From positions 179,902 to 243,901 of the forward strand of contig NW_019218206.1 of assembly GCF_002571385.2 (NCBI RefSeq): a DNA stretch of 64,000 bases, written 5' to 3'. Positions within the stretch are counted from its first letter, which is position 1; every line of letters starts with the position of its first letter. This DNA is from Stylophora pistillata (lineage: Eukaryota). The notes beneath the pieces are model-generated. The model searched no databases. It saw only the letters and a program-made list of their open reading frames with translations, and had not been told where the DNA came from. Shown here piece after piece: positions 29,402-57,800 of this stretch. Position numbers and translations under genes: made by a program.

Positions 29402-32400
29402 TCAACGACCTATTGGGTATGTGTCTACTCTGTCTGGTAGAATGATTCGCTTGTCATCATCAGCGGATAGAGCGAGTTTGTTGATCTCCTCCATAAACAT
29501 CTCATGCTTTCGACTTCTGAGGGTATTCATTTTCCGATGCTGTTTTTTACCATCAAACAAGCATCTTTTATAATTATCAAGATTGATGGTACGCTCTACC
29601 ACTCCCGTCTTCACCCCCTTACACTTCTTTTTCTCTTCTCCACTATCAAACATCTTATAGCAATAAAGCTTTGCCCTCAGACCAACAAACTCCTCAATGA
29701 TTTTTCCACCCGCCTCATCCTTAAACTTTCCAATAACTTTCTTGTTTACCCCGGTTGGTATCCCAGAAGGGTGATCTTTTGAAATGTTGCTTGTGTCAAA
29801 CAAACAATCCACATCATCAATTATATCTTTGTAAAAGTCTTCAGTCTGAATCTCATAGCAGAGACTGTCTGTATCAGTGAAAAGAAGCTTTGCTCTATCT
29901 CCGTACTTGGGTTTGATGTAGTTGTAATGAAAGTCATACATCAGAGTCTTGCTGAGATCGAGGATACACATTCCGAGATAGAGAGGTTTGTTGAAGGTAA
30001 TTTGCGTCTTTCTCATCTCTACCGCACAGAGATTCTCAGAGAATATGGTGCAGTGTTTGAAGTTGACCTTATTTACCAATTTTTTTGCCTTATCTTCTGA
30101 GTTGACAAGTCTCACATCAACTCGTTTTCGAATATTTTCCATCGTCTTTCCATATACAGAAATGTTCATGAGTTTGAAAAAGTCTTTTTCGAAATCGTTA
30201 TCAGCCTTGGCTCTCAACTCTGTATTTAAATCGATGTACTTTTTCATCCAAGGACTCTCTTTAAACTTGATGATACGGTGAATCTTTCCAATCTCAATTC
30301 CAAGACTCATGTAAAGCTTCAATGTCTCGTGATGAACGATGTACCTCTTTTTTTCGTTTAAGGTACAGACCAACTTATGAACTTTTCCAATCAACAGATT
30401 TTCAGGAGCTGGAGGATAATCGTTAAAATAATCATACAACTCTTTTTTGATGGGAAGTATATCAACCTCAAGAATGCAGGGAAAACTCTTCCAACCCCCA
30501 AAGTCTTTCTCATCTACCCATTCAAAACCACCTGTCGGTAGATTTTGACTCATCGCCCAGCCGTAGAGATTGTTTGCGTCAAGATATGTGATGAAACTTG
30601 AAGGTATGCTTTTATCAAACTTTTCACCCATGTATTTGTTGTTTGCTTTTGCATATCTTTTTGTAATCATCGAAATCCCTCCGCGAATGCCTTTTTCAAA
30701 CATATGCAACATGTTTGGATCACTCAACAACTCAAGCTCTATCTCAGTCATCTTGAGGCATGCATCCCAAGCCAAACCTGGTGCAGTGTAGTACCAACAG
30801 GGGTCGAGGTCATAGTTCTCCTTGCAAACCTTTCGAAAGTTTTCAAAAACGTCACACAGCAAGAGAACATCACTTTGATTGTAGAGATTGTGATAATCTC
30901 GCATCGTTTTCATCTCAAAGGTTTTCCACACCTCTTTTGCATGATTATATTCCGCTTCCGCTATACCACTACCACTGAGAACAGAGAAAAAAGCTTCAAT
31001 CGGTGGAAATTCAGTCTCATCAAGCTTGTTGATAGAATTCAACCACTCGTAAGGATAGACACCCTTTCTCTTCAATAAGTCAAGCTTTTCTCCATCAAAG
31101 TATCTTCCTGTATTCACTAAAGAGTCATCCTTTTTGGTGAGGTTGTTGACAAGCTTGTCAAGACTGGAAGCCATGAATTTGAAGCTGTCAATGAACCTCA
31201 ACTCTCTCTTGACAACAACATCTTCTTTTTTCTTTTTGTTGAAAAACTTGTCAACCACAACACTCTTTGTGAAGCTGATGTATTTTTCTTCGTTGTTGGG
31301 AATGCAATTAATATCACCTTCTGAAACACCGAGATTTCTAACGAAGAGATGGGCGTCATAGTTTGCCAAATTGTGAAAGACGACAGGAGTAAATTTTGGT
31401 CGTTGGAATCTCAGGTTGCAACTATTATGCGCAGCTCCTCTAAATTTACCGGTGTAATGGCAATGATCACGAACCTTTACATCTTCCATCTTGAAATCTT
31501 CTCCACACAACCAACAACACATCGCATTTTCAAAGAGTTCAACATCATTGTCTGTGAAGATCATCTCTTTTTTGGGATGGTTTTTGTAAATAGTCTTAAC
31601 CTCTTCTTCAAGCATGTTAACAAATATCTGTGCAACATCTTCATCTTCAGACTTTGCTGTATACTCAACCAGTTTTGAATGTTTGTCATCGAAAGAGCAT
31701 TTAACAAAGTAGCAAAAACTCACTGGGATATGTTTCTGCTTCTTTTCGGTATAACACTCTTCAGGATTCGGTTGAACTGTGTGCAAAGGTTTGATGATTG
31801 ACTCAAAGTCAGCATAGATGACGAGCGGCATGTCCATCTTTTTATAGTTGTTTTTGAAAGAGAGAAAAGTTCCCTCTTTCGGCTTCTTCTCTCTCACAGC
31901 CTCATGATCTCGACAAAGTTCGCTGTGTACGTCAAGAAGTTTCTGATAACCGAAATAATTAAGACATCTCTTGCAAATAAACTTTTTATGTCCATCTTTT
32001 GATAGGTCACTCGATACAAGTCGACTTAAAGATTTGATGAGACAGTAATGTTTTTTCTCACTTTTTTCACCTTCATCACCTTCACTGTCTAAGCAGTGAT
32101 CAGTGATGAGAAGAAGATCAATATGGATCTTGCTGCTCTCAACCTTACTCACTCTCAAGGGTTTGAGCCCACCTTCATACATGTAGACGTTGATAGAAAG
32201 ACTCGGATTCAACTTTTCAAAGCGGTGAATTTTTGTCACCTCCATCGGAAACTTAATCCCATCCCACACAAGCTTCTTTGCCTGCTCTCTCAATGTCTTT
32301 GAGATACGCTCTTGGTCCTTTTTTACAGGATTCAACGCTCTTGTCACACACCATTTGAAACATTCATCATCTTCATTTTTTATGTTTATGATAGCCTTCT

Positions 32401-33235
32401 TATCTGCGAGAAATTTTGGTAGCTTAATGTATGAAGAACCTTTCAAAGGAGTGTATTTCGCCGTATGCGAATCTAAACCCTCAACCGAATGGATAAACCA
32501 ACCGCTTCCATTTCTTGTAAACGTAGCCAAACTCTCCATCATTTTGTCAACACATTCTTGATAAAGTTCTTCTCGATCAGTATCTTGAAAGACAATCTTG
32601 GAAGATGAATTAAAATATACAAGCTCTAGCACAGTCTCACCCGTCACAATATTTGTCTTTGACATATTACACTTCAGAACGAACTCCACCTTGATATTCT
32701 TCTGCGTTAATAAAAACTTTATTACGGTCGGTTTTACACCCTCCAGAAAATCCATCGGTCCATAACCCCCCACCCCATCAATTGTGTACATCTTTACAAA
32801 CCCTTTCAATGCAGACTTTTTCTCAACAAGTTTGAAACGATACTGATCTCTTTTCTCGTAAAGCTTAGCGATATGTGTTTTGAAATCTTTCAACTTGTCA
32901 TCAACCACCACTCGTGGTACATCAACCTGTTCCTTCAACCACTGACCCCAATCTTCTACCTCCCTCTTCCCCCAATCAACAGCCTTATCTATCTTTTTTA
33001 CCAGCAAAGCTGGTTTTGACGGTATTAATATATTCTGCTCCTCCGGAATCTCATGTTCAGGAATCGGATCATCGAGTAAATTACGTCTCTCTGAAACCAC
33101 TTTCTTATTGTTTGGTATTGACTGATTTATAAAATTGATAAGTTCTGCTTTTCGAAGTCTTGAATAACCACGAAGACCATTTTCCTTTGCAATCTGACGA
33201 AGTTGTACAACAGTATGTTTTTCCATTTTCTGCAT
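29402..33235 (-). CDS. polB: Protein-primed family B DNA polymerase (pPolB) with N-terminal vOTU-like domain and inserted HNH/endonuclease VII-like domain
   Basis: 1277 aa. Exonuclease motifs YADFES, FHNLANYD, YNQSDV; polymerase motifs YLDANNLYG, KLMNISVYGK, TDTDS. HNH-like CWLC...VRDHCHYTGKFRGAAHNSCN. OTU-like DDECFKWC...HYCLI. Confidence 0.95.
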   Translation of the reverse strand: MQKMEKHTVVQLRQIAKENGLRGYSRLRKAELINFINQSIPNNKKVVSERRNLLDDPIPEHEIPEEQNILIPSKPALLVKKIDKAVDWGKREVEDWGQWLKEQVDVPRVVVDDKLKDFKTHIAKLYEKRDQYRFKLVEKKSALKGFVKMYTIDGVGGYGPMDFLEGVKPTVIKFLLTQKNIKVEFVLKCNMSKTNIVTGETVLELVYFNSSSKIVFQDTDREELYQECVDKMMESLATFTRNGSGWFIHSVEGLDSHTAKYTPLKGSSYIKLPKFLADKKAIINIKNEDDECFKWCVTRALNPVKKDQERISKTLREQAKKLVWDGIKFPMEVTKIHRFEKLNPSLSINVYMYEGGLKPLRVSKVESSKIHIDLLLITDHCLDSEGDEGEKSEKKHYCLIKSLSRLVSSDLSKDGHKKFICKRCLNYFGYQKLLDVHSELCRDHEAVREKKPKEGTFLSFKNNYKKMDMPLVIYADFESIIKPLHTVQPNPEECYTEKKQKHIPVSFCYFVKCSFDDKHSKLVEYTAKSEDEDVAQIFVNMLEEEVKTIYKNHPKKEMIFTDNDVELFENAMCCWLCGEDFKMEDVKVRDHCHYTGKFRGAAHNSCNLRFQRPKFTPVVFHNLANYDAHLFVRNLGVSEGDINCIPNNEEKYISFTKSVVVDKFFNKKKKEDVVVKRELRFIDSFKFMASSLDKLVNNLTKKDDSLVNTGRYFDGEKLDLLKRKGVYPYEWLNSINKLDETEFPPIEAFFSVLSGSGIAEAEYNHAKEVWKTFEMKTMRDYHNLYNQSDVLLLCDVFENFRKVCKENYDLDPCWYYTAPGLAWDACLKMTEIELELLSDPNMLHMFEKGIRGGISMITKRYAKANNKYMGEKFDKSIPSSFITYLDANNLYGWAMSQNLPTGGFEWVDEKDFGGWKSFPCILEVDILPIKKELYDYFNDYPPAPENLLIGKVHKLVCTLNEKKRYIVHHETLKLYMSLGIEIGKIHRIIKFKESPWMKKYIDLNTELRAKADNDFEKDFFKLMNISVYGKTMENIRKRVDVRLVNSEDKAKKLVNKVNFKHCTIFSENLCAVEMRKTQITFNKPLYLGMCILDLSKTLMYDFHYNYIKPKYGDRAKLLFTDTDSLCYEIQTEDFYKDIIDDVDCLFDTSNISKDHPSGIPTGVNKKVIGKFKDEAGGKIIEEFVGLRAKLYCYKMFDSGEEKKKCKGVKTGVVERTINLDNYKRCLFDGKKQHRKMNTLRSRKHEMFMEEINKLALSADDDKRIILPDRVDTYPIGR

Positions 33236-33857: not shown

Positions 33858-34814
33858 TTATATTTTTTGAAGTTCACTCTCATCAATCCATGAGTTGAAT
33901 TTTTCTGGATAACCACTCCACTTTACGAGAGCCTTTCCTTTACTCTTTCGAATAACCTTCTCAATAAGGAAAACATCTTGTTTTGCTCTCAACATCTCTT
34001 GTTCGTAGAAAGAACCTTTGATCTCTTCACCGAGCAGATCCTTTAACTTGTAAGTGATTGGGTTGGAATATTGCGCCTCGTCAACGACAAAAATCTCTTC
34101 TGTCCAATTCGGAGTAAATCCTTTGTCAAACACTTTTCGTTTGAATTTGGAGATTCGAACGTGATCGCCAACTGCAAATTTTGGTCTCTCCCGCAATCTA
34201 CTCAAATCATCGCCGTAAAGTTTCAGAAAGACAGCATTCTCATTTTTTTTCTTGGATGCCTCTACCGGAGTCATACCAATCGATCTATGTTTTCGATTGT
34301 TGTACTTCTTAACGATGTGTGGTAGAATGTCGAGATACTGTGTGTTGTTCTGAATGGTAAACTGTTTCCACATCTCAGTTTTGATGGTTCGTTTCCACCT
34401 CTCACAGACAGACGATTTTTCTTCATTCTCTGTCGAGTACATCTCAACACCTTCAGCTTCCATTAGATCTTTGACATGACTGTTGTAATACTCTGAACCC
34501 TTGTCAACCCAGAGTCTCTTCGGTTTTCTCCCTCCAACAAAAATCTTTCTGAACCCATCCGAAACACTCTCACCCTTTTTATTTTTCAACGGTACAATCC
34601 AACCGTATTTGCTAAAGACATCCAACACCATCAGCAGATATCTATAACCCTCATTCCACTTTTCAAACTTTTGCATCTCAACCAAGTCAGAACACCAAAT
34701 CTCATCGATTCCGTTGACAATAACGCGTCGTTTTCTAAAGTTTCGTCTCACCGGTCTGTGCAACTCATCTGCTAATTCTTCTTGCCACCCTGAGCTTTTT
34801 TTGAGCTTTTTTTT
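33858..34814 (-). CDS. int: Retroviral-type (rve) integrase with C-terminal chromodomain; no own AUG before the first catalytic Asp
   Basis: DDE triad WCSDL / WVDKGSEY / VCERWKRT, then GDHVRIS and chromodomain ALVKWSGYPEKFNSWI. The ORF-track start at 34874 is GTG, and the first ATG (34676) lies after the first catalytic D. Confidence 0.9.
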   Translation of the reverse strand, partial: KKKLKKSSGWQEELADELHRPVRRNFRKRRVIVNGIDEIWCSDLVEMQKFEKWNEGYRYLLMVLDVFSKYGWIVPLKNKKGESVSDGFRKIFVGGRKPKRLWVDKGSEYYNSHVKDLMEAEGVEMYSTENEEKSSVCERWKRTIKTEMWKQFTIQNNTQYLDILPHIVKKYNNRKHRSIGMTPVEASKKKNENAVFLKLYGDDLSRLRERPKFAVGDHVRISKFKRKVFDKGFTPNWTEEIFVVDEAQYSNPITYKLKDLLGEEIKGSFYEQEMLRAKQDVFLIEKVIRKSKGKALVKWSGYPEKFNSWIDESELQKI

Positions 34815-35632
34815 GCACCCAGACCGAGCTGTTGCTTTGTGTTGATAACATTTCTCGCAACCCAATGACCCCACTGTCTATCACTATTGGGTATCGCATC
34901 GAGAGCTTTTACCATCTTACGATCAGCCACATTTTTACACTTTTTTGGATTTTTTTTATTTGAACAGACACTGTAATCAACATCATGTTGCATAGCTACA
35001 GCATCAGTCGGTCCTGTTGGTTTATCAAAAATCTCTAAAATCTCACCCGTCTGTGGGTCATACCTCAACTGTTTTTCAAGGTCGTTGTACGGTCCGGTAT
35101 ACTTATGTCCTGGAAGAGTCCAACCAGATTTTGGTTTTGGTAGTTTACCGATAGCTTTGTGAATATCAAAAGATCCTCCTTCGTAAAGAGGGTGTGTCGG
35201 ATCAAGCACACCATCAGGTGCATGCATTGACATTGGTAACACTTGATTAACATCAACACTTGTGCTTCCCCCACTTATCTTTTTACTCAAATCATTAGTG
35301 AAACTGTCAAGAGCTTGATTGAGATATTTGTCGGCTGTTTGTTTGATTTTATTTTTAGCATAATCTGATTTGATAGCTTTTGCAGCACCTTTTCGAGCAC
35401 GATAAGCACCACTGTTGGCCAATCCTTTCAAAGCCATTTCACCTAATGAATGACTGTTTCCTACATCAAACAATGATCCACCACTCTTAGTACCGCTAAA
35501 CCTTACCTTTGTACTACCACACTCTGCACACTTTGATTTGATCATCAGTCGACCATTTTTTGCAATCTCTTGTCTTTCACTCCCGGGTACAGACTCAGTC
35601 TTTTTTCTCTGTTTGACACAATAACTCTTCAT
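34772..35632 (-). CDS. Virion protein with N-terminal Cys-rich (DUF5679-like) domain and parvovirus-type phospholipase A2 domain
   Basis: MKSYCVKQRKKT...KNGRLMIKSKCAECG at the N-terminus. PLA2-like LPGHKYTGPYN...DAVAMQHDVDY..C (Ca-loop YxGP, HD dyad). Several xxGG motifs resemble adenain cleavage sites. Confidence 0.8.
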   Translation of the reverse strand: MKSYCVKQRKKTESVPGSERQEIAKNGRLMIKSKCAECGSTKVRFSGTKSGGSLFDVGNSHSLGEMALKGLANSGAYRARKGAAKAIKSDYAKNKIKQTADKYLNQALDSFTNDLSKKISGGSTSVDVNQVLPMSMHAPDGVLDPTHPLYEGGSFDIHKAIGKLPKPKSGWTLPGHKYTGPYNDLEKQLRYDPQTGEILEIFDKPTGPTDAVAMQHDVDYSVCSNKKNPKKCKNVADRKMVKALDAIPNSDRQWGHWVARNVINTKQQLGLGAKKSSKKAQGGKKN

Positions 35633-35647: not shown

Positions 35648-36289
35648 TTAGATTTTTTCATCAAAATTTTTCATGCATGTATTCTTTGCTTTGTCGAGGA
35701 AAAGAAATTCAAAAGGTTTCAGTCTTGAGAACAGATCTGGTTCAAAACAATTATCTTCAACGATTAGTTTGCGATGACGATTTGTTGGAGGGGTGTACAC
35801 AATCATATGAGAACAGTTCAATCTGATGTTGACAGGTGTCTTGTGATATGATTGACTCAGATACACCGGTGAGATTGAATGATGCCTTCCATCAATAAAA
35901 TGTTTCAAGATCTTTTCCTGCACGTTTTTAGGAGCAGTAATGAGATCGGCAAAAATCACAACCTTTCTTCCTCCTCTTGGATACTCTGTCGTGTCAAGAA
36001 TTTCATCAGGATTCATCAGATTCAACACATCATATCCAAGTTTCTGTGAGTGTTTATGCATAATCTTTTGGAGATCTTGTATCAACTCTTGGTGAATGTT
36101 TGGAGTGTAGATAAAAATCTGATCGTAAATGACCAGTGGCTCTCTCAACATGTACATGAGTGTGTTTGTCTTTCCACTCCCACTCGGACCAGCGATCAGC
36201 ATCCTATACTCTTCATCAAGAAAGTCAACATCAGGTGCTTTTCTCTTTTGATTTTTTCTCTCTGTTGTTAATTTTGGAATATTAACCAT
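35648..36289 (-). CDS. FtsK-HerA/A32-like genome packaging ATPase
   Basis: Walker A GPSGSGKT, Walker B region VVIFADL (normally DD), and GRHHSIS...LSQSY...IRLNCSH typical of the Polinton ATPase. Confidence 0.9.
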   Translation of the reverse strand: MVNIPKLTTERKNQKRKAPDVDFLDEEYRMLIAGPSGSGKTNTLMYMLREPLVIYDQIFIYTPNIHQELIQDLQKIMHKHSQKLGYDVLNLMNPDEILDTTEYPRGGRKVVIFADLITAPKNVQEKILKHFIDGRHHSISPVYLSQSYHKTPVNIRLNCSHMIVYTPPTNRHRKLIVEDNCFEPDLFSRLKPFEFLFLDKAKNTCMKNFDEKI

Positions 36290-40170: not shown

Positions 40171-40212
40171 TTTTATAACATCTTCAGAAAATTTGAAGAT
40201 GTTTTTTTTGAC

Positions 40213-40752
40213 TCAAACCTCTTTGAAATATTTTATGATAAAACGCTCATTTGAAAAAGTGTCACTGTATGATAGTGGTTTTGTCACATCGTCAAAGACA
40301 GAGTACAAACTTTGATGAGCATATTCAGGTTTCAACCTTTTACTTGTTTCATTCAAGAAAAAGAGACAATAATAACCACACAAGACGCTTGTCAGTGATT
40401 GAAAATGTGTGTTGTTAAATGCGTAATTGATTCTATGTTTTTTAGAAAGCTCTTCCACCTCTTGTGGTGGGTGAAGACCGAAACTGTCAAAGTATAAGAT
40501 GAGATCAGAGCCAAAGAACATCGCCACCCAGTGTGAACCAGACTCATATGACTCGTTTAGATTGATGACAAAAGAGTATCCTGTCTTACAATCTTTTATT
40601 TGATCTCTAGAGATAACCCCTCCAAAGTTTGGAATCTTTAGGTATTCAACCCAGTTTTGAATGTCAAGGTTTGTGATTGGTATATTTTTAAAGGGTGGTC
40701 TTTTTATAGTATAGCTCCCAGTAGTGGTACTCCGTTGAAGGGAGAGTTTTTT
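40213..40752 (-). CDS. Adenain-like cysteine maturation protease; no own AUG before the catalytic His
   Basis: GSHWVA...YFDSFG...HFQ...LCGYYC (His/Asp/Gln/Cys). The ORF-track start at 40848 is TTG, and the first ATG (40521) lies downstream of the catalytic His. Confidence 0.9.
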   Translation of the reverse strand, partial: KKLSLQRSTTTGSYTIKRPPFKNIPITNLDIQNWVEYLKIPNFGGVISRDQIKDCKTGYSFVINLNESYESGSHWVAMFFGSDLILYFDSFGLHPPQEVEELSKKHRINYAFNNTHFQSLTSVLCGYYCLFFLNETSKRLKPEYAHQSLYSVFDDVTKPLSYSDTFSNERFIIKYFKEV

Positions 40753-41549
40753 CCCACCAACAGACCTTGTCCTTTCTGCTTTTTTTTCCCTTTTTTTACC
40801 CCTCTTCCAATTTTTGGTATAGGTCCATCCAGCCTTGGTGGAAACCAAATCGGTTGTTGTTCAGACCAATATGGTCTGTTTTGTAATCCCCTACCAGTCT
40901 TGCTTGGCGCGCGAACGTGTAAACCTCTTCCTCTCGAGTTTCCGCTTCCGGTCAACGCCTTGAGAAGTATCGGTACACCGATTGAAGCGAGAAGAGTACC
41001 GAGAAAACCACCACTTTGCCTCTTTGTTGGTTTCATTTTCAAGTCACCACCACTCTTTAGAGCAATTGCAATGTCTTGTTTCTGCCTTTCTGAGAGACGG
41101 TTTTCAAAAGGTAAAAGCTGCGGAATCTTTGAATGAGGAATTATCAGACCACCCGACTGTTGACCAGCACCAAGAATCTTGTCAGTAGCAAAATTTCCCA
41201 GACTTGAGAGTGCTCCTGTCGCCAATCCTGGTAGAGCCTTTGTGGCTAGATTCATTGCTTTTAGGAGGAGTTTTGCACCAAGAGTTAGAAGTGATGAGAA
41301 TAGACTACCACCTTTCTGTGCAACCTTTGTTATCTGCGTCTTACTAATTTTTAGATCAACTCCTTTCCCACTATTTATTGCTTTCTGGATTCTATTGATC
41401 TGTGTCTTTGTCAGCATCATCTCATCAGAACCAGTCAGTTCGTTGTGTGAGAGACGCAGAGTGATGGGTGATTTTTCGTTAAAAGCTTTGGCAAGTTTCC
41501 TTCTCTGATTATCTGAAAGAGTTACACCATATGCAATATAAGTCGTCAT
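40704..41549 (-). CDS. Basic core/membrane-active virion protein with protease-cleavage-like QxGG motifs
   Basis: 281 aa. QKGGSLF, QSGGLII and QSGGFLGTLLASIG are followed by amphipathic helices, with a Lys-rich C-terminus. The position between MCP and protease is typical of Polintons. Confidence 0.7.
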   Translation of the reverse strand: MTTYIAYGVTLSDNQRRKLAKAFNEKSPITLRLSHNELTGSDEMMLTKTQINRIQKAINSGKGVDLKISKTQITKVAQKGGSLFSSLLTLGAKLLLKAMNLATKALPGLATGALSSLGNFATDKILGAGQQSGGLIIPHSKIPQLLPFENRLSERQKQDIAIALKSGGDLKMKPTKRQSGGFLGTLLASIGVPILLKALTGSGNSRGRGLHVRAPSKTGRGLQNRPYWSEQQPIWFPPRLDGPIPKIGRGVKKGKKKQKGQGLLVGKNSPFNGVPLLGAIL

Positions 41550-41603
41550 CTTTTTATTATGTGACTCACATAATAAAAATTTAAAAAAAGATGAAAAGTC
41601 TAC

Positions 41604-42949
41604 TTATTTCATGATTACTGCTTTTCTACCCATGGCTTCAACATTGACTTCCTCCTCATTGAGAACCAATGCATAGATGTGATAGTTTGCGTCGGTGGTA
41701 TTGTTGAGGCTGTACTCGAAATCTAGATCTGCTGAAACTTTGAGAAGCTCTGGTGTTTGTCGTGACAGATCAAAGCAAAGTATTCCATAGAGATCTTTAA
41801 ACTTTTTCAAATCAATTGTTGGCCCGAACAGATTACCGCTTACGAACTTTACATAGTCTATAAGATATATCCATGCTCTTGTCAGCTCACTGTTTGGGTT
41901 CAGTACTTGCTTAGGATACTTTTTACCATTCTGTACATCAAGTTGAGCCTTTGTAAAGTATCTCGCATTTGCGATGTTGTAAGTGTTGAACACAAACATG
42001 TTATGTTCCTGATTGTTAAACTTGGTTGCATTCAGAGCCCAGATAAAAACATGTCTTGGTCTTTTGACAACATTTGCAATTCTAAATGTTCCTTCTCCTT
42101 GTTGAAGTGGTCCTGACTTAACAATTCTCTCTCTCTCAGATAAGACCATCTGTGAGGTTTGAGGTAGTTATCGAGCCAGGTCTTTATTCCAAGGTCATTC
42201 ATCTCAATTATCGGCACCCACAAGAGGAACTTTGTTATGATGTATCTTCCTGCCGCAGCGGCATTTGCTCTAAACAACACATTTGCATCACTCTCAAGCG
42301 TAACATTGATAGTAACCTTTGCATTGGGTGCTAACTGCTCTTCTAAAGACTCAAAGAAGCCAAACCGGTTGAGTGGTAGATGAATGTTGTTTTCAGCACC
42401 TGCGGCGAGAAGAACCTTTCTTTTTGTAAAACCTTCATTGTAATTAGTGTTTCTTGTTGGAATTCTGTTCACATCTTGACCATTAGCGATCGGAATGGCA
42501 AGTGTTGAGTACTCTTGTATGACTGCTCCAGTGGCTGTGTCGGGGTAGTGAAATTGGCGGGGGCCTAATTCTTTTGAATGTTCTTTTGTAAACTCGGTGA
42601 GATTCTTTACATTTGCAGCGTGATTTGCATTTGGTAGATCGAGAACTCTCACGTTTTCAAAATCAACTTTGATGTCATTTATCATACTAAAACCACCATT
42701 GTTTATTGCAGCTGCATCAGCTGCACCATAAATTGTGTTATCCATCTTTGTGATTTTAAAATCTATTTCAAAATAAGCATTGTACCAGTCAGCTACAGTA
42801 TTTGCCGCTGTTGATGTGTCAACTGTAAACCTGTATCCAGTTTTCTCTTGATATTCGTTATTTGCTGGTGCAGATTGGAGAGGAGTTTCGAGCTTATATG
42901 ATTTATACTCATACCCCTCTGAAAATTTTGCAGTTCGCATCGAAGACAT
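41604..42949 (-). pseudogene. Double jelly-roll major capsid protein, frameshifted
   Basis: ORFs 42032-42949 and 41604-42149 join into ~447 aa if (GA)6 at 42126-42137 is read as (GA)5 (WSYLRE-RIVKSG). RPRHVFIW, KKYP and LYGILCFDLS motifs are typical of Polinton MCP. Confidence 0.85.
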
Positions 42950-43496: not shown

Positions 43497-44447
43497 TTAT
43501 TTCAGGAGAAGTGTTAATGAGATCGGAACTCCGTTGAGGTCGAGTGGTCTTCACAGTGCATCAGTCACAGAGATTCGCAAATCTGTGATCTCTCTTGTGT
43601 TTATTTTGCTATACTTTTTCTCTCTTGGTTCGATATGAAAAGGATAAGAGAGGGGGAGATTGTCAACACTGAATCGAAACAACACATCTGATTTCTTACC
43701 ATTAATAACACTCTCTGAGATTATGTTCGTGCGAATGTAGATGTCATCGACAGATCTTGTTATGTCAGGTAATTTTTCACCATAGCTGGTGGTTGTGACA
43801 ATCTTTTTTGTAAAACCAATGAGGTCGGCAAAATTTCCGTTTTGCAGATCAACTTGAAAACCATCTTCGAGACCGATCAGAACTTTGAAAAGCGCTGGGA
43901 CAAATTTTATTGTAATGCCTGTCTTTGAATGTTTTGATCCCTCTAGCTCTCTCTGAATATAAGCGTTCAATTCAGAGTATGCAAAATTCCCATCTGGGAG
44001 TTCAATATTATGCCACGTCGTACCTGAATCGTGACTATATTTCAATTTGTTATTATCATAACTACTGCTCACATTGTACCAGCTGTATGACATTGCGATT
44101 TCATCGAGAGCGATTTCATACTCTCTGTTTGGGTTAGGTCTCATCACAGGATTAAAAGATGTTGTAAAATCATGACTCGATCCATTCTTACAAGTCAAAG
44201 AGTTGAGATATTGACCACTTTCATAAATGGCTCCCGGATTAATATTCTTTTGTGTAAATTTAAATTAGCCTTTCTGGCCTCGTTTTCCAGTACAAAATTC
44301 AAAATAATACATCATCTCAAGCGAGGCCAGAAAGGCTAATTCAAATTTAAACAAAAGAATATTAATCCGGCAGCCATTTTTGAAAGTGGTCAATATAGGT
44401 GTTTTTTTTACTTGTTTCTCTGTCAATTCCAAAAGTTTCTCCATCAT
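43497..44447 (-). pseudogene. Minor capsid (penton) protein, disrupted by a MITE and a nonsense codon
   Basis: Removing the 183-nt insert restores MMEKLL...KTPIYLNSLTCKNGSSHDFT. Motifs YEIAL, IELPDGNFAYSELN, IYIRTNII. TGA at 43551-43553 replaces G in DAL(G)RPLDLNG, and the frame continues to TAA at 43497. Confidence 0.85.
44212..44392. mobile_element. 181-bp MITE with ~70-bp TIRs and probable AT target-site duplication (ISL2EU-like)
   Basis: TGACCACTTTCA..AAATGGCT..CCGGATTAATATTCTTTTGT...GCCTTTCTGGCCTCG is mirrored at the other end. The element is flanked by AT on both sides, and excising the element plus AT restores the penton frame. Confidence 0.85.
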
Positions 44448-51875: not shown

Positions 51876-54800
51876 CTACTCAACATGTTGATCCCTAATT
51901 GTCTTAATAATATCTTTACATTCGGTGGCTGTTCGCCTCAAACTTGGGTCGGATTGCCAACTCGATGTCATGAGCTCAATCCATATTGCTGGAGGAGGAT
52001 TACCATTCCTGGGAATTTGTGGACGATAATGCTCATCTTTAATTCGTCTAAAGAATTCTTCACGTCGTAGTTCGCTGAAGACGCGTTTCCCAAACCACAT
52101 TTCCCACATCACAAGACCAAAACTGTATATATCCACCTTTGTGCTGTGGAGTTTGCCTTCCATTACCTCCGGTGCCATATACAATGGAGTTCCACACATC
52201 GTGCCAGTTATTTTGTCTTTAAAGGTTGCTAGACCTAAGTCTGCAACTTTGATGTGCTTACGTTTTGAGATCTGGAAACAATGTCAGGCAAAGTTAGTTT
52301 CCTGAAAAGGCTTCATAATTTTCAACACTTCAATCCAAAAAACAACCGCTATTTGCTTCGGCTTTAGGTTATACTCTTTGCCCCTGTGCCAAGCACTTGT
52401 ATATTTCAACATTTTTAAACGGTGGCAGACACAGCATATGAGCCAAAGGACTCATCTCGCCGCAGCTTATCCCGATTTCATTGGAATCTTACATGCAACA
52501 TTTTCAAATAACTGAGAAAAAATTGGCTTTTATCAAATGCTCATTTGGAGCAAATGAAATATTAAGCTAATAAAGTTTGGCGCCGTAATAATTTTTGCTC
52601 TTGTGATGAAGTCAGAGCATTCTTCAACGCGGTAACCTGATTCCCGAGCTGACGTGGTCACTGGGTGAGTTTTTGCTGCGGAAATTTTTAAAATGGTCAC
52701 CTAGTCGAGATTTCAGTCCGATTACTGTTGAAACAGTCAGTAGTGTATCGCAAAAGCCTAGCCAGCACTTTTTACCGAGGTCATATGAGGATCACCCTAT
52801 TTCCACTAATACTGACTCAACAGAATTTTCTCTTTGTCCTACGATCGTAAAAACACACAGAAAGGATGCTTCTTCATTTCAATGCCTGGTTTATAATTTA
52901 CCATATTTCATCTTTTATTAACTCACCAGAATATTGGCCAGCTTGAGATCTCGATGGACAACATTCTTGCTATGGATGAATTCAAGCGCATCTAAGATTT
53001 GTTTTGCCCAGAGCATAATCCCAGCTGCTGCACTGGCCGTCTTCCACGGAATGTACTCATCATTTTCAAAGATTTGCTGGTCTAGGCTCCTGATACACAA
53101 GTCAAACACTAGAACCAGGGAAACGAGTTCTCGGTTTTGAACGTCTATGCCCACTCCGTAAAATGTAACGATGTGCTTGTGTTCAAGTTGCCTGCGTAAA
53201 AGATAGTGACCAAATTAATATTTTATTAGGCTACGCACCCAGGTGATAAAATTACAATGAATTCACTAGATGAGGGTAATCCCTTGTTGAGCCTTCTGAA
53301 AGTGCACCGTGAAAGTGTAAAAGCGTGATCCGATTAGTAATCTTTTCTAACAATCAATAATAATGTATAAATTTAGGCCTCATTCCCTGGAGTAAATTAA
53401 CGATACTTTACAATTTCCTTTGAAATGGTGGTGAAAAGCAAGAGAATATTCATTACTTGGAATTTTTCCACCAAAGAATCTATTTACTCACATCTGATTG
53501 AATAACAGAAAGATTAGATGGATTATTTAAAATGCAAAGGGCACCAAGAAATTTCAAGTTTAGTTAACTGTTCCTTATCTGTACAGAGTGGCTCCACGAC
53601 CGCTATTTTCGAAACCAAATTGTTTAGCTTAGTATTCATATAGTAAAGGAAGAAAAAAAAAACCAGAGAACCCCTTGGAAAACTCTTAAATGCAAGGACA
53701 ATAACTAATAACAAGGACAATCCGCATGTAACACCAGGTCCGATAATCGAGCCCACGCCATAGTAGTCGAGCGCTTTCACTTCTGCATGAGGTAAAAGCA
53801 CTGTTCCCTAGCTATTCTGACTTAAAAAAACTTACTTCAGCATTGCTGCTTCTTTTAGAAAGGTAGCAACATTTGATGGATCTGAATGTTCCCGGATCTT
53901 TTTGACCGCAACATCTTTTCTTTTATGTCCAGGAGGAGAGTATCTACCTTTGAAAACCATTCCATAAGTGCCTGCACCAAGGTGAGCCTGTCTTTCTTTC
54001 TCATTGTACTTGAGTCGTCTCACATCAAGCTGGCAAGATGGGTACATCACCTGTATTCCATTTTGAATTGCATCGAACATCAAGTTTTCATTCATGTCCT
54101 TTAAGTTTGAGTAGAGTGGTTGGTATTTTTCAAGGATTTCTTTTTCCCTTGATTCGTCTTCGCTCTTTGTCAGGTCTTTGCATCGCTGCTCGTATTTGGT
54201 GATTAACTGTTGGTGACACCTCTTGATGTTCGCAATGCGATTCGTCTCCTCGCTGAATTTGTCTCGAACGTAACTGAGGATTTTGTCTGTAATGAAGTCC
54301 TCGAGGAACTCCGCCGAGAGGTCTGTCATTGTTAGACAACAATTGCTCCTCTGGTGTTGTTCTTTTAGATGCTTTCCAAATGCCAGTACCCCAAGGACGG
54401 GTGCAGAAATAAATCCGGCAGCGAGGCCTACGGGTATCAAAACTGGCCATAAAATTAAGCCAGTCATCACCAGAAATTTTTTCATTCTTGGATCTAAAGG
54501 CGAGAACATCCGGCCCGGTCGAATCTCAAAAGGTCGGAAGTCGTCCACGTCACTTCCAACAAGTACACGGTCAATGTCTCGAATTTCTCTTTCAAACTCT
54601 AGGAAACCTTTGTTAAACTGTGCTTCCAGTTCTGCGTGTGCTTGGGTGAAAAAATTCACTCTGCTTTCCCAGTCTTGGAGGAAATTTTCGAATCGTTGTT
54701 CAATGCATCTGCTAAATGCCTCTTTCATCTTTGAAAAGTTTTGACCCTCTTCCGTTTTAGGCAGTTCGTTTTCTGTCCACCTGCAAAAGCTCCTTTTAAA

Positions 54801-57800
54801 TTCATCAGTCTGTAGGTAGGAAGCAAGTTTTTGTTGTGCTTGTTTCACATACGAAGTTATGGCATTCTCAATTTCTCGGATGGGGTTGCCTTCTTTAAGC
54901 TTGCTGAGTTTCTCGTCAAGTACCTTCCGAGCCTGGAGACGTTGCTCTCTGTTCCTTTTGGCGTTACACATTTCACCTTTCAGCTGATCGGACAAGCTGC
55001 AGAGCTGGCCGCTAATCCAGCTGTCAAATAGAGCAGAAAGATGAATTAACTACATGTTGAAAAGCGTTTTTTTCAATCGTTAAGTCGAATGCGAATAGTT
55101 TTTCTTAACTTTGTTTTCCTTCAGTCGTCTTTTGGATTGATTCTTAATTTCACAAGACCAGTGGAATGACGTTTATGCAAGCTTAGTATTTCGGATTTGT
55201 TTTCGAAAGTGAGCAAATACTCATTTCGAACACGATTTGGAAACATTTTGTAAGATCGTGATTTAAATGTTACCATTGGGAAACATTTTCCTGTAACTCT
55301 TTCCAGCCGTAAAAATGTATTCAGTCCGTAGGAAATCTGCAACGCCCTCTTCGATGGAAAATTGTCACATCCAGTTGGATTAATTAGCAATAATCTTTAT
55401 CCGTTGGCTTCTACAAACAGATTTATCCTCAAGGGCTGAGGGAACTTGGAAAAAGTTTTCCTTAGCAACGTTTGTGAAAGGTATTGGATAATTAAAATCA
55501 GTATGCAAATCTTCGGTCTTTAAATGATCAGCTGGGAGATGAAATGAAACTTACAAGTAGAAAAATTCTATTTTTCTCTCAATGCAAAGCGGCAGAAGAC
55601 GTTGTAGTCGATTCACAAGATTGTGGAGATCATCACCCATCACGTCGAATCTCTCTTTTACTTCTGCAGCTCTCAAGACAGACATCTTAATGATTTGGAA
55701 TTTTTCATCCAGTTCGGGAATAGTCTTTCTGAGAGTGTCGATGATGTGCCTTTCAGGATCTTGCTCCTGATTTCGGTTAGACTGCTTTTCCACCTCGTCC
55801 CACTTGTTACAGACAAAAATAGCAGATTCGGAAGTGATACCGCAGCCATCCTCCCCCTTGTAGAGTCTTACCCATTCGCTCAAGATTGGCATCAGCTGAA
55901 AGATTTATCACGAAAACTAAATGTAAAGAATGGAAAAACATCTCTGGTATCGGGGAATTTTTATAAAACTATTACAATCGGGTGGTGTATCTCTATAAGT
56001 GACACATACCTTGTGCTAAAATAAGTATAAAGTAACTCCTAAACATTTTATAAGACAGATGACGAGTCTCAAGTTTACCCTGTCCTGTTGTAATCCTCCG
56101 GCGTTTGGAGTGTTTACCACGTAAATAAAAGCGTAGGCTCGACTTAAGTATTTCAGGGTGATTTCACTGACACGCTTGGAATCGCCAATTCAAGGGCTGT
56201 CCACGATCACTACGCCACCCTAGAAGAGAGAAGAGCTGTTAGTTAATAAGAAATTGATCATAAATGAAGAGTGACTAAACTTTCTGCTTTTTAGTTGTGC
56301 GTAAACTTGTGGTGCGAAATCTCTTATTCACTTCGGCCTCCAGTGTAGGTATAGAGGCGAGAAACAGAGTACAGCCCAATGCAGAATAGAAAGCTAACAG
56401 CACAACACAGCACATTAACAACCTAGAGCGTCTAGCGATTTAAAGCATTCAAGAGGCCCCCGAAAGGTACAGTTGTCCACCGACTTCACTAATGATGTTG
56501 CCCATATACTACAGGGATCGAGGAAGGAAAGAGAAAAGCGTTTTGTGGGTTAGACTAAAGCGCTTATGCCTGTTACATGGCGGAGTCAGGAAAACCAGTG
56601 ATGGCAGACCAATCCCAAAACGGCAGAAATCGCCAAAGACCACAAAGCACACATACGGAGTGAGAAAGTTTTATTATCTTAAGCGGGAAATTTTACTATT
56701 TAGGAATATTAAGTGCTGTAAAGCGACCCTATTTCGTTCCCCATACTATTCCTCATGGCGCATTCAAATTCTCAACGGTTCCTCGCGTAACTTAACACAC
56801 AGGCTTTCATGAATTATATTTTGCCTGTCTTCGAGACGTGAGTTTGGAACGACTGTGGAAATACATAAAATACCCCTGTTAATTTTATTGTACGTTCGCA
56901 AAAAGTTTTGTCACCTTTAATAGTGGATTTGGAATCTTGATCTCTATCTTCTCGCACCAGTTTTCATCCTCTATTGGTTTTTGAATGTAATCTTTATACT
57001 TTTCAAATCTGTCCCCGGTAAGGACACGAGATGGCTTGCTTCTATTAGCCAAGTGCAGGACAGCTTCTTCGGTCACTCCATACGATATTTCACATATAGT
57101 CAATGTACTCTGCTTGATACTGGTTGGCATAATGCGTTCGCTAAGTAAGAGGTTAATAAGACTGCTTTTGCCAGCGCTGGTTTCTCCTGTTGTAGGAAAA
57201 TAGGAAGGGTTTTAAAGAAAGAAACACGAATTTCATTCTTACGATAGGGAATCTGAAAATTAGCCCTTTTACACCGCTGGATTAAAAGCGAATCGTACCT
57301 TCAGACAGATAATTTTTCGGACCCCGACCGAGCTACATGAGTTAACCTCTGAAAATAATTACCAAATGCCCCAGCGGTAAAGTCCTTTCAAGCACTAATT
57401 GAGGTGTTCCCTAGTCTTTCAACACGTCAATTACTTTTTGTTATTTTCAGTTTTCATTTCCCCCATAAGCTCGTCTCAAAGTTATCAGAGGATCACTTGC
57501 TGGAGGACTGCTAAGATTGCGAGGCGAAAAAACTGATGCAGACCAGGCCACTCTATGAGAACAGTGTTCCATGGCTTTCGTTGTAAGAGGATGCCGACAA
57601 CGAAAGTTCAATGATGAAATTGGTGAATCATGATCTAACCAAAGAAAACTTGGGGAAAAACCCTGAATTTTGTATGGGAACGATTAAAATGGTTTCAAGT
57701 TTACTGTTGCAAGACTTACCAAGAATGAGGACAGTGTATCTCTCGGTTGCGAGATCCCTAAGACATGCCTCAGCTTCCTTCCGAAAGTCATTTACTTCGG

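Follow-up and report, generated by a model that had tools for sequence, protein, structure and literature searches.

How is a viral enzyme made when its reading frame has no start codon ahead of its active site? The question is raised twice by a Polinton (adintovirus) of ~16 kb in the genome of the coral Stylophora pistillata, in which the frames of both the protease and the integrase overlap the end of an upstream gene and lack an AUG. The element lies on the minus strand of the window (the whole stretch of 64,000 nt analyzed here, positions 179,902 to 243,901 of contig NW_019218206.1), and all coordinates below are window positions on that strand. Its genes are a family B DNA polymerase-like ORF of 1277 aa (29402-33235; motifs recognized by eye, a Pfam PolB match being absent), an rve-chromo integrase frame (33858-34814; PF00665 and PF00385), a PLA2-like/DUF5679 virion protein gene (PLA2X-like; 34772-35632; PF08398 and PF18930), an A32-type packaging ATPase (35648-36289; PF04665, E 3.5e-11), a collagen fibre-like gene, an adenain-fold protease (40213-40785, if entered at the A-run discussed below), a core-type protein of 281 aa (40704-41549), a double jelly-roll capsid gene (41604-42949; PF21738, E 5.4e-6, just under the cut-off) and a penton-like gene. 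Of the features that mark membership of the Polintons, a chromodomain-bearing rve integrase, a packaging ATPase, an adenain-like protease and a double jelly-roll capsid protein are present. No terminal inverted repeats were found among the 25 longest inverted pairs at 26000-48000, a region with an N gap near 45.7-45.9 kb, and there is no RNA polymerase gene in the ORFs seen. The core-type protein is a homolog of "Adintoc8" (supplement of PMC11071296), for which 3480 homologs were found; it is basic, has repeats of x-G-G/G-x-G motifs, and is presumably the virion core protein.

The reference copy is defective outside the two overlaps. Its capsid gene is broken across two frames (42967-42032 and 42167-41604) that overlap at 42167-42032, where the gene splits, and the 5' end of the penton-like gene holds a palindromic, MITE-like insert (44208-44396) whose inverted arms are 78 nt long (94%). 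Near-perfect AT-rich hairpins of 10-15 bp stand between genes at 43468-43439, 41579-41551, 40203-40177, 37801-37773, 36564-36522 and 33305-33275, several of them immediately 5' of a TAAAA(A)ATG-like start; we take them to be reminiscent of the hairpin signals of giant viruses and virophages. The one at 41551-41579 (13 bp) is directly upstream of the core ATG, and that at 40177-40203 (10 bp) directly follows the protease stop, ahead of the fibre-like gene. The element is flanked by a host kinase-like gene that has multiple exons and a coiled region (51876-56000). Several Polinton genes are joined into single proteins in public coral gene models (P0001, P0002, P0123-P0130), some of which carry names such as "collagen" or "surfactant protein D".

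The core ORF occupies 41549-40704, and the open stretch of the protease frame, in the −1 register relative to it, spans 40860-40213. No ATG occurs in this frame before 40521, four codons past the His of the GSHW motif, and a protease started there would lack the catalytic His together with three strands and the first helix. Although a Pfam search of the protease gave no match, its fold is that of adenain (model pLDDT 94.5; adenovirus proteinase 1nln is the top structural hit, E 1.6e-6). An initial annotation of this DNA had proposed that the protease is made as a −1 frameshift fusion to the core protein, and its coordinates for the core ORF, the protease frame and three phased X XXY YYZ heptamers in the overlap, A AAA AAA (40797-40791), A AAA AAG (40785-40779) and A AAA AAC (40752-40746), all hold, as does its statement that no intergenic hairpin separates the genes (none of at least 10 bp is found at the junction). 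It overlooked a fourth phased heptamer, G GGA AAA (40755-40749), which overlaps A AAA AAC within 40746-40755. The presence of phased heptamers in one Lys-rich tail is unremarkable by itself, with a probability of about 0.3 by synonymous resampling.

Comparison among copies in the same genome is far more telling than the reference copy. Of 107 matches, the best-placed 70 were examined, and the core C-terminus could be recognized upstream in 59, which are the scorable set; the −1 register is retained in 56 of these 59, and core-protease spacings range from 23 to 59 nt with differences that are always multiples of three. Forty-six close copies are in register, and in 23 of them, referred to here as intact pairs, both frames are open. 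Every intact pair has A AAA AAG or A AAA AAA at the K-K-Q codons (23/23, where 7.2 would be expected), every one has an open −1 frame (23/23 vs. 2.3 expected), and none has an in-frame ATG before the protease domain (0/23). The heptamer at K-K-Q is conserved in 44 of the 46 close copies. No −1 stops are found within the 78 nt preceding the core stop, whereas bins further upstream contain 5 to 42 each, and this openness has been kept while synonymous sites diverged (median four-fold-site identity 0.54). The copies are related, so these counts are not independent; nevertheless the conservation of the heptamer and of the open frame, unlike the mere presence of a heptamer, is beyond chance, and the open −1 frame is under selection. 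Six of the 46 close copies are in-frame core-protease fusions, the opposite change is seen in none at this junction, and in five copies the sequence 3' of the site is longer by 9-18 nt. The initial annotation had named an ATG near the start of the protease domain in intact relatives as evidence against a shift: such a codon occurs, as Met at the position of an Ile, in 7 of 10 more distant own-genome copies, though with the register retained, and not in the intact pairs.

Which of the heptamers would be used can be judged from the same alignment. The initial annotation favored A AAA AAC, which recalls the MMTV gag-pro site, but this heptamer was rejected as the shift site, being found in only 6 of the 23 intact pairs and in 10 of the 46 close copies; the overlapping G GGA AAA, found in 5 of 23 intact pairs, is not conserved either. 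Neither is A AAA AAA at 40791-40797, and downstream of that position many copies have a closed −1 frame. There remains A AAA AAG at 40779-40785, part of an 8-A run 79 nt upstream of the core stop. In the 20 copies with standard spacing used for codon tallies, the codon that supplies its first A always ends in A (20/20), across five amino acids (K, G, E, Q and R), and the codon that follows is AAA in 20/20. Third positions elsewhere are invariant in only 18 of 180 columns, and just one of eight invariant Lys columns is all AAA. The seventh position of the heptamer varies between A and G, whereas the first six do not vary. GGT is the commonest Gly codon (43%), yet it is never used at the places 3' of the site where it would create a −1 stop (0/20, 0/20 and 0/17); it is used where it is harmless (12/20) and immediately 5' of the site, so stop-making codons are avoided 3' of the site only. 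A −1 stop lies 3 nt upstream of the heptamer in 10 of the 46 close copies. The codon tallies, the avoidance of GGT and these stops immediately upstream make 40785-40779, and not the site preferred before, the likely point where the protease frame starts to be translated. Between the core stop and the protease domain, the K-R-P-P-F-K-N-I segment (40680-40702; modelled pLDDT 93) is conserved as protein, while its Pro, Phe and Lys codons vary synonymously.

The stimulator that had been suggested 3' of A AAA AAC did not fare well. The hairpin can form, but it is weak (-8.8 kcal/mol, z -1.12), and over 20 copies no structure stands out downstream of the site (mean z 0.23). As candidate stimulators, this hairpin and the longer one after A AAA AAG (z about -1) were both rejected, there being no signal over the 20 copies. 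A consensus structure is likewise weak (-2.68 kcal/mol), and the 66% of cells that are paired in it are matched by slid controls, which score equally high. Folding without pseudoknots found no conserved 3' stimulatory structure at either the protease or the integrase junction in this Polinton family. An MMTV-type signal, A AAA AAC plus a pseudoknot, is thus not seen here, the heptamer being present in a minority of intact pairs and followed by a weak hairpin only.

The integrase presents a second AUG-less overlap, which the initial annotation did not mention. The integrase frame overlaps the PLA2-like gene in the −1 register at 34814-34772, and its first ATG (34676) is four codons past a W-x-x-D motif whose Asp we take to be catalytic. 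Two phased A AAA AAA heptamers (34814-34808 and 34802-34796) lie in the overlap and are likely the second shift site. Thirty of 150 own-genome matches were examined at this junction and 29 could be scored. Within that sample a run of 8-13 A is present in all 29 copies, the integrase frame is open from the A-run in 28, and the spacer from run to integrase, 27 to 102 nt long, is a multiple of three in 28 and contains an ATG in only three. Nineteen of the 29 are in the −1 register, seven in +1 and three in frame, and run lengths at this junction have changed in both directions among genomic copies; the sequence 3' of the run varies freely. Among a further 20 more distant integrase copies, A AAA AAC with a run of just six A occurs in three, 12 belong to another family without a PLA2-like neighbor, many of them with an ATG, and one (L244, G000:C350) has the PLA2-like protein and integrase in a single frame with no A-run. 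In L245 a stop lies between the A-run and the integrase, and one IMG/VR integrase locus fits the pattern poorly.

The core-protease layout extends well beyond this coral. Forty metagenome loci were found, and in the 14 A-rich ones examined in detail the register is kept, the A-runs are often shifted in position, and an ATG is present in one. In-phase runs of only six A occur at L003 and L125. A clade about 30% identical (six loci, four of them near-identical) has instead U UUU UUA in phase, with a −1 stop shortly upstream; in five of the six an 11-12 bp hairpin lies over the core stop and starts 8-11 nt downstream of the heptamer (z -2.2 and -3.3), and the sixth locus, L107, has an ATG and a hairpin that is not unusual (z +1.0). 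The 3' hairpin of this clade fits a ribosomal shift better than one by polymerase. In an IMG/VR set of 84 rows that includes some duplicates, 10 rows have a core homolog. With L071 and L119 set aside, overlapping core-protease pairs are in the −1 register with a phased A heptamer in 5/5, compared with 0/9 rows in which some other ORF overlaps the protease from upstream, and in the five non-overlapping core-protease pairs the protease has its own ATG. At the IMG/VR loci L118, L120 and L123 the run is exactly where the −1 frame becomes open, the first ATG comes 85 codons later, and ~185 extra codons, PLA2-like by eye, lie in that frame between core gene and protease.

Not all relatives follow the pattern. 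The protease is separate and ATG-started in L102, L115, L117 and L129-131, an ATG is also present near the start of its domain in L089, L107, L111, L116 and L071, and L045 and L046 have no heptamer. In a protease tree (L111 and L115 left out) the overlap layout falls on several well separated branches, mixed with separate-ATG forms; with the backbone open, its spread is compatible with one origin or with several. Scans of viral contigs with a core protein found nothing. Longer fused proteins in the databases are mostly merged gene models and were discarded as evidence of fusion; three of 151 database core proteins are joined to protease at the Lys run. At the 3' end of the core gene of L125 (1870-1896), besides A AAA AAG, there is G GAU UUU followed by a stop, which we believe resembles a plant-virus slippery site. 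Many core homologs (P0132-P0278) finish a few residues past G-[LIV]-F-L, the peptide that bears U UUU UUA in L103-L110; for P0132-P0278 it is known from proteins only.

The protease and integrase are likely made as frameshifted fusions, since neither has its own start codon and each overlaps its neighbor at a conserved A-run. Our preferred reading, with a probability of roughly 0.6, is that ribosomes slip by −1 on these runs at a low level, which would yield core-protease as well as PLA2X-integrase fusions. The hairpins 5' of the core ATG and 3' of the protease stop would mark the ends of a single RNA, translated mostly into core protein, and a minority of ribosomes would slip by −1 on the AAA-AAA Lys codons of the run, without a conserved 3' stimulator in this family. 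With slippage at both junctions, low levels of the two fusions would serve to package the enzymes, and inside the virion these may then be released by the protease at x-G-G/G-x-G sites. Against this reading, most of the runs, at 7-10 A, have a length at which a polymerase could slip, and A-runs arise easily in Lys-rich tails. In addition, A AAA AAG is a weak slippery site in eukaryotes. RNA reads came to seven in total (1, 6, 0 and 0 from four runs), all less than 90% alike and without joints, and they contain no shift product or edited RNA, a sample too thin to decide. The core-protease fusion that was first proposed is strengthened by conservation of the junction and by distant relatives, its preferred site and stimulator have fallen, and either ribosome or polymerase could make the shift. 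That the fusions are recoded in some form, by ribosome, by polymerase or through a mixture at the DNA level, is very probable.

The main rival is slippage by the RNA polymerase on the A (or T) run, so that some of the transcripts gain a base and the same fusions result. The length of most runs, their instability among genomic copies, and the want of a 3' stimulator, with freely varying 3' sequence at the integrase junction, all suit such an enzyme. Against it stand the six-A runs of L003, L125 and three integrase copies, which match the X XXY YYZ phase exactly, the hairpin that lies 3' of U UUU UUA in the distant clade, and a seventh position that varies between A and G beside six that are fixed. 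We consider polymerase slippage unlikely, though a serious contender. Slippage in DNA replication could alternatively produce a mixed virus population in which genomes with longer runs supply a fixed fusion to the others. The in-frame fusions, six of 46 close copies with none opposite at the protease junction, three of 151 database proteins, and the run-less PLA2-integrase fusion of L244, are what it would predict, but at the integrase junction run lengths change both ways, as they would from decay or assembly error, and the hairpin clade is left unexplained; such a mixture is very improbable.

The protease might instead have a start of its own, through a non-AUG codon, re-initiation or a splice into the overlap. 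In favor of this, 7 of 10 distant copies have Met in place of the Ile, and separate ATG-started forms exist in relatives. However, there is no conserved near-cognate codon (the Ile is encoded by ATC in 11, ATA in 11 and ATT in one), and the peptide upstream of the Ile is conserved as protein; a start at the Ile is disfavored because the stretch linking core stop and protease domain shows synonymous variation. A splice acceptor was rejected, as no conserved AG follows pyrimidines: the sole invariant AG comes after the A-run. Selection for an open frame all the way back to the run would also be left without explanation by a separate start or splice, which we therefore regard as improbable. Finally, the layout could be an accident of Lys-rich tails with the enzyme genes dead, and the broken capsid and penton-like genes of the reference copy would agree with that. 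The protease and integrase frames are nonetheless intact and conserved in many copies and lineages, and the codon tests agree, so this idea, already largely refuted, is the least credible of all.

Part of the idea has been anticipated. A preprint by Buck et al. (2024; PMC11071296) predicts −1 slippery sites for an adintovirus penton and for Hexon-Adenain, and its supplement file 2 has PLA2X beside PLA2X-Adenain for Adinto12800 and Adinto3309, as well as an Adintoc8-Adenain fusion (BK012063) whose junction is of the in-frame type found in six copies here. The sections of its text covered contain no core-protease shift, site or conservation test, and in these and the covered part of the supplement neither "slippage" nor an X-integrase fusion appears, although the GenBank maps may say more. 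Nor is such a frameshift described in the parts covered of PMC8502044 (including section 3.2 and the supplement), PMC11131425, PMC8097293 and PMC11296320. The initial annotation's impression that this logic was new for Polintons holds only in part, since the covered parts of the preprint predict −1 shifts and pair PLA2X with PLA2X-Adenain; a targeted search of the Polinton, adintovirus and virophage literature, which took in few subscription papers, turned up no published account of the comparative evidence or of the integrase case.

Retroviruses make Gag-Pro and Gag-Pol by −1 frameshifting, at A AAA AAC in MMTV and U UUU UUA in HIV-1. The Polinton layout is similar in that AUG-less enzyme frames overlap a structural gene in the −1 register, the cargo is protease and integrase, and relatives show both the A-rich and the U UUU UUA heptamer types. 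It differs in belonging to a dsDNA virus, in using two structural genes with one enzyme each, in having a cysteine protease, and in that the shift is predicted and lacks a conserved stimulator in this family. Polymerase slippage on a short A-run likewise opens an overlapping frame in potyviruses (GA6) and Ebola virus (A7), but through viral RNA-dependent polymerases, whereas no RNA polymerase is seen among the ORFs of this Polinton. The adenovirus protease is made from its own gene, as is that of mavirus, unlike the predicted Polinton fusion. Both maturation proteases have the adenain fold and are packaged in the virion, and mavirus virions contain protease and integrase (according to the portion of PMC6048507 covered). 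Ribosomes of an E. coli in vitro system slide by −1 on AAA-AAA (PMC9207662, in the portion covered), much like the stimulator-free movement on short A-runs predicted here; there sliding is a loss of frame, whereas the Polinton run is selected and opens an enzyme frame.

The feature is real, conserved and wider than first described, its probable shift site has been corrected, and its mechanism is a prediction. There is perhaps an even chance that a broad and old branch of Polintons and Polinton-like viruses packages protease and integrase as −1 recoded core fusions, a Gag-Pro-Pol strategy reached independently in dsDNA viruses and, in this family, carried out by selected, stimulator-free ribosome sliding on poly-Lys A-runs. 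If so, it would be a natural case of selected A-run slippage, which is usually regarded as error, and anyone expressing Polinton proteins would fail to obtain the actual products. AUG-less protease and integrase genes are annotated as truncated or dead, so intact elements may be undercounted. Such recoding would explain how Polintons package and dose two virion enzymes, and would tie them to the logic of retroviruses.
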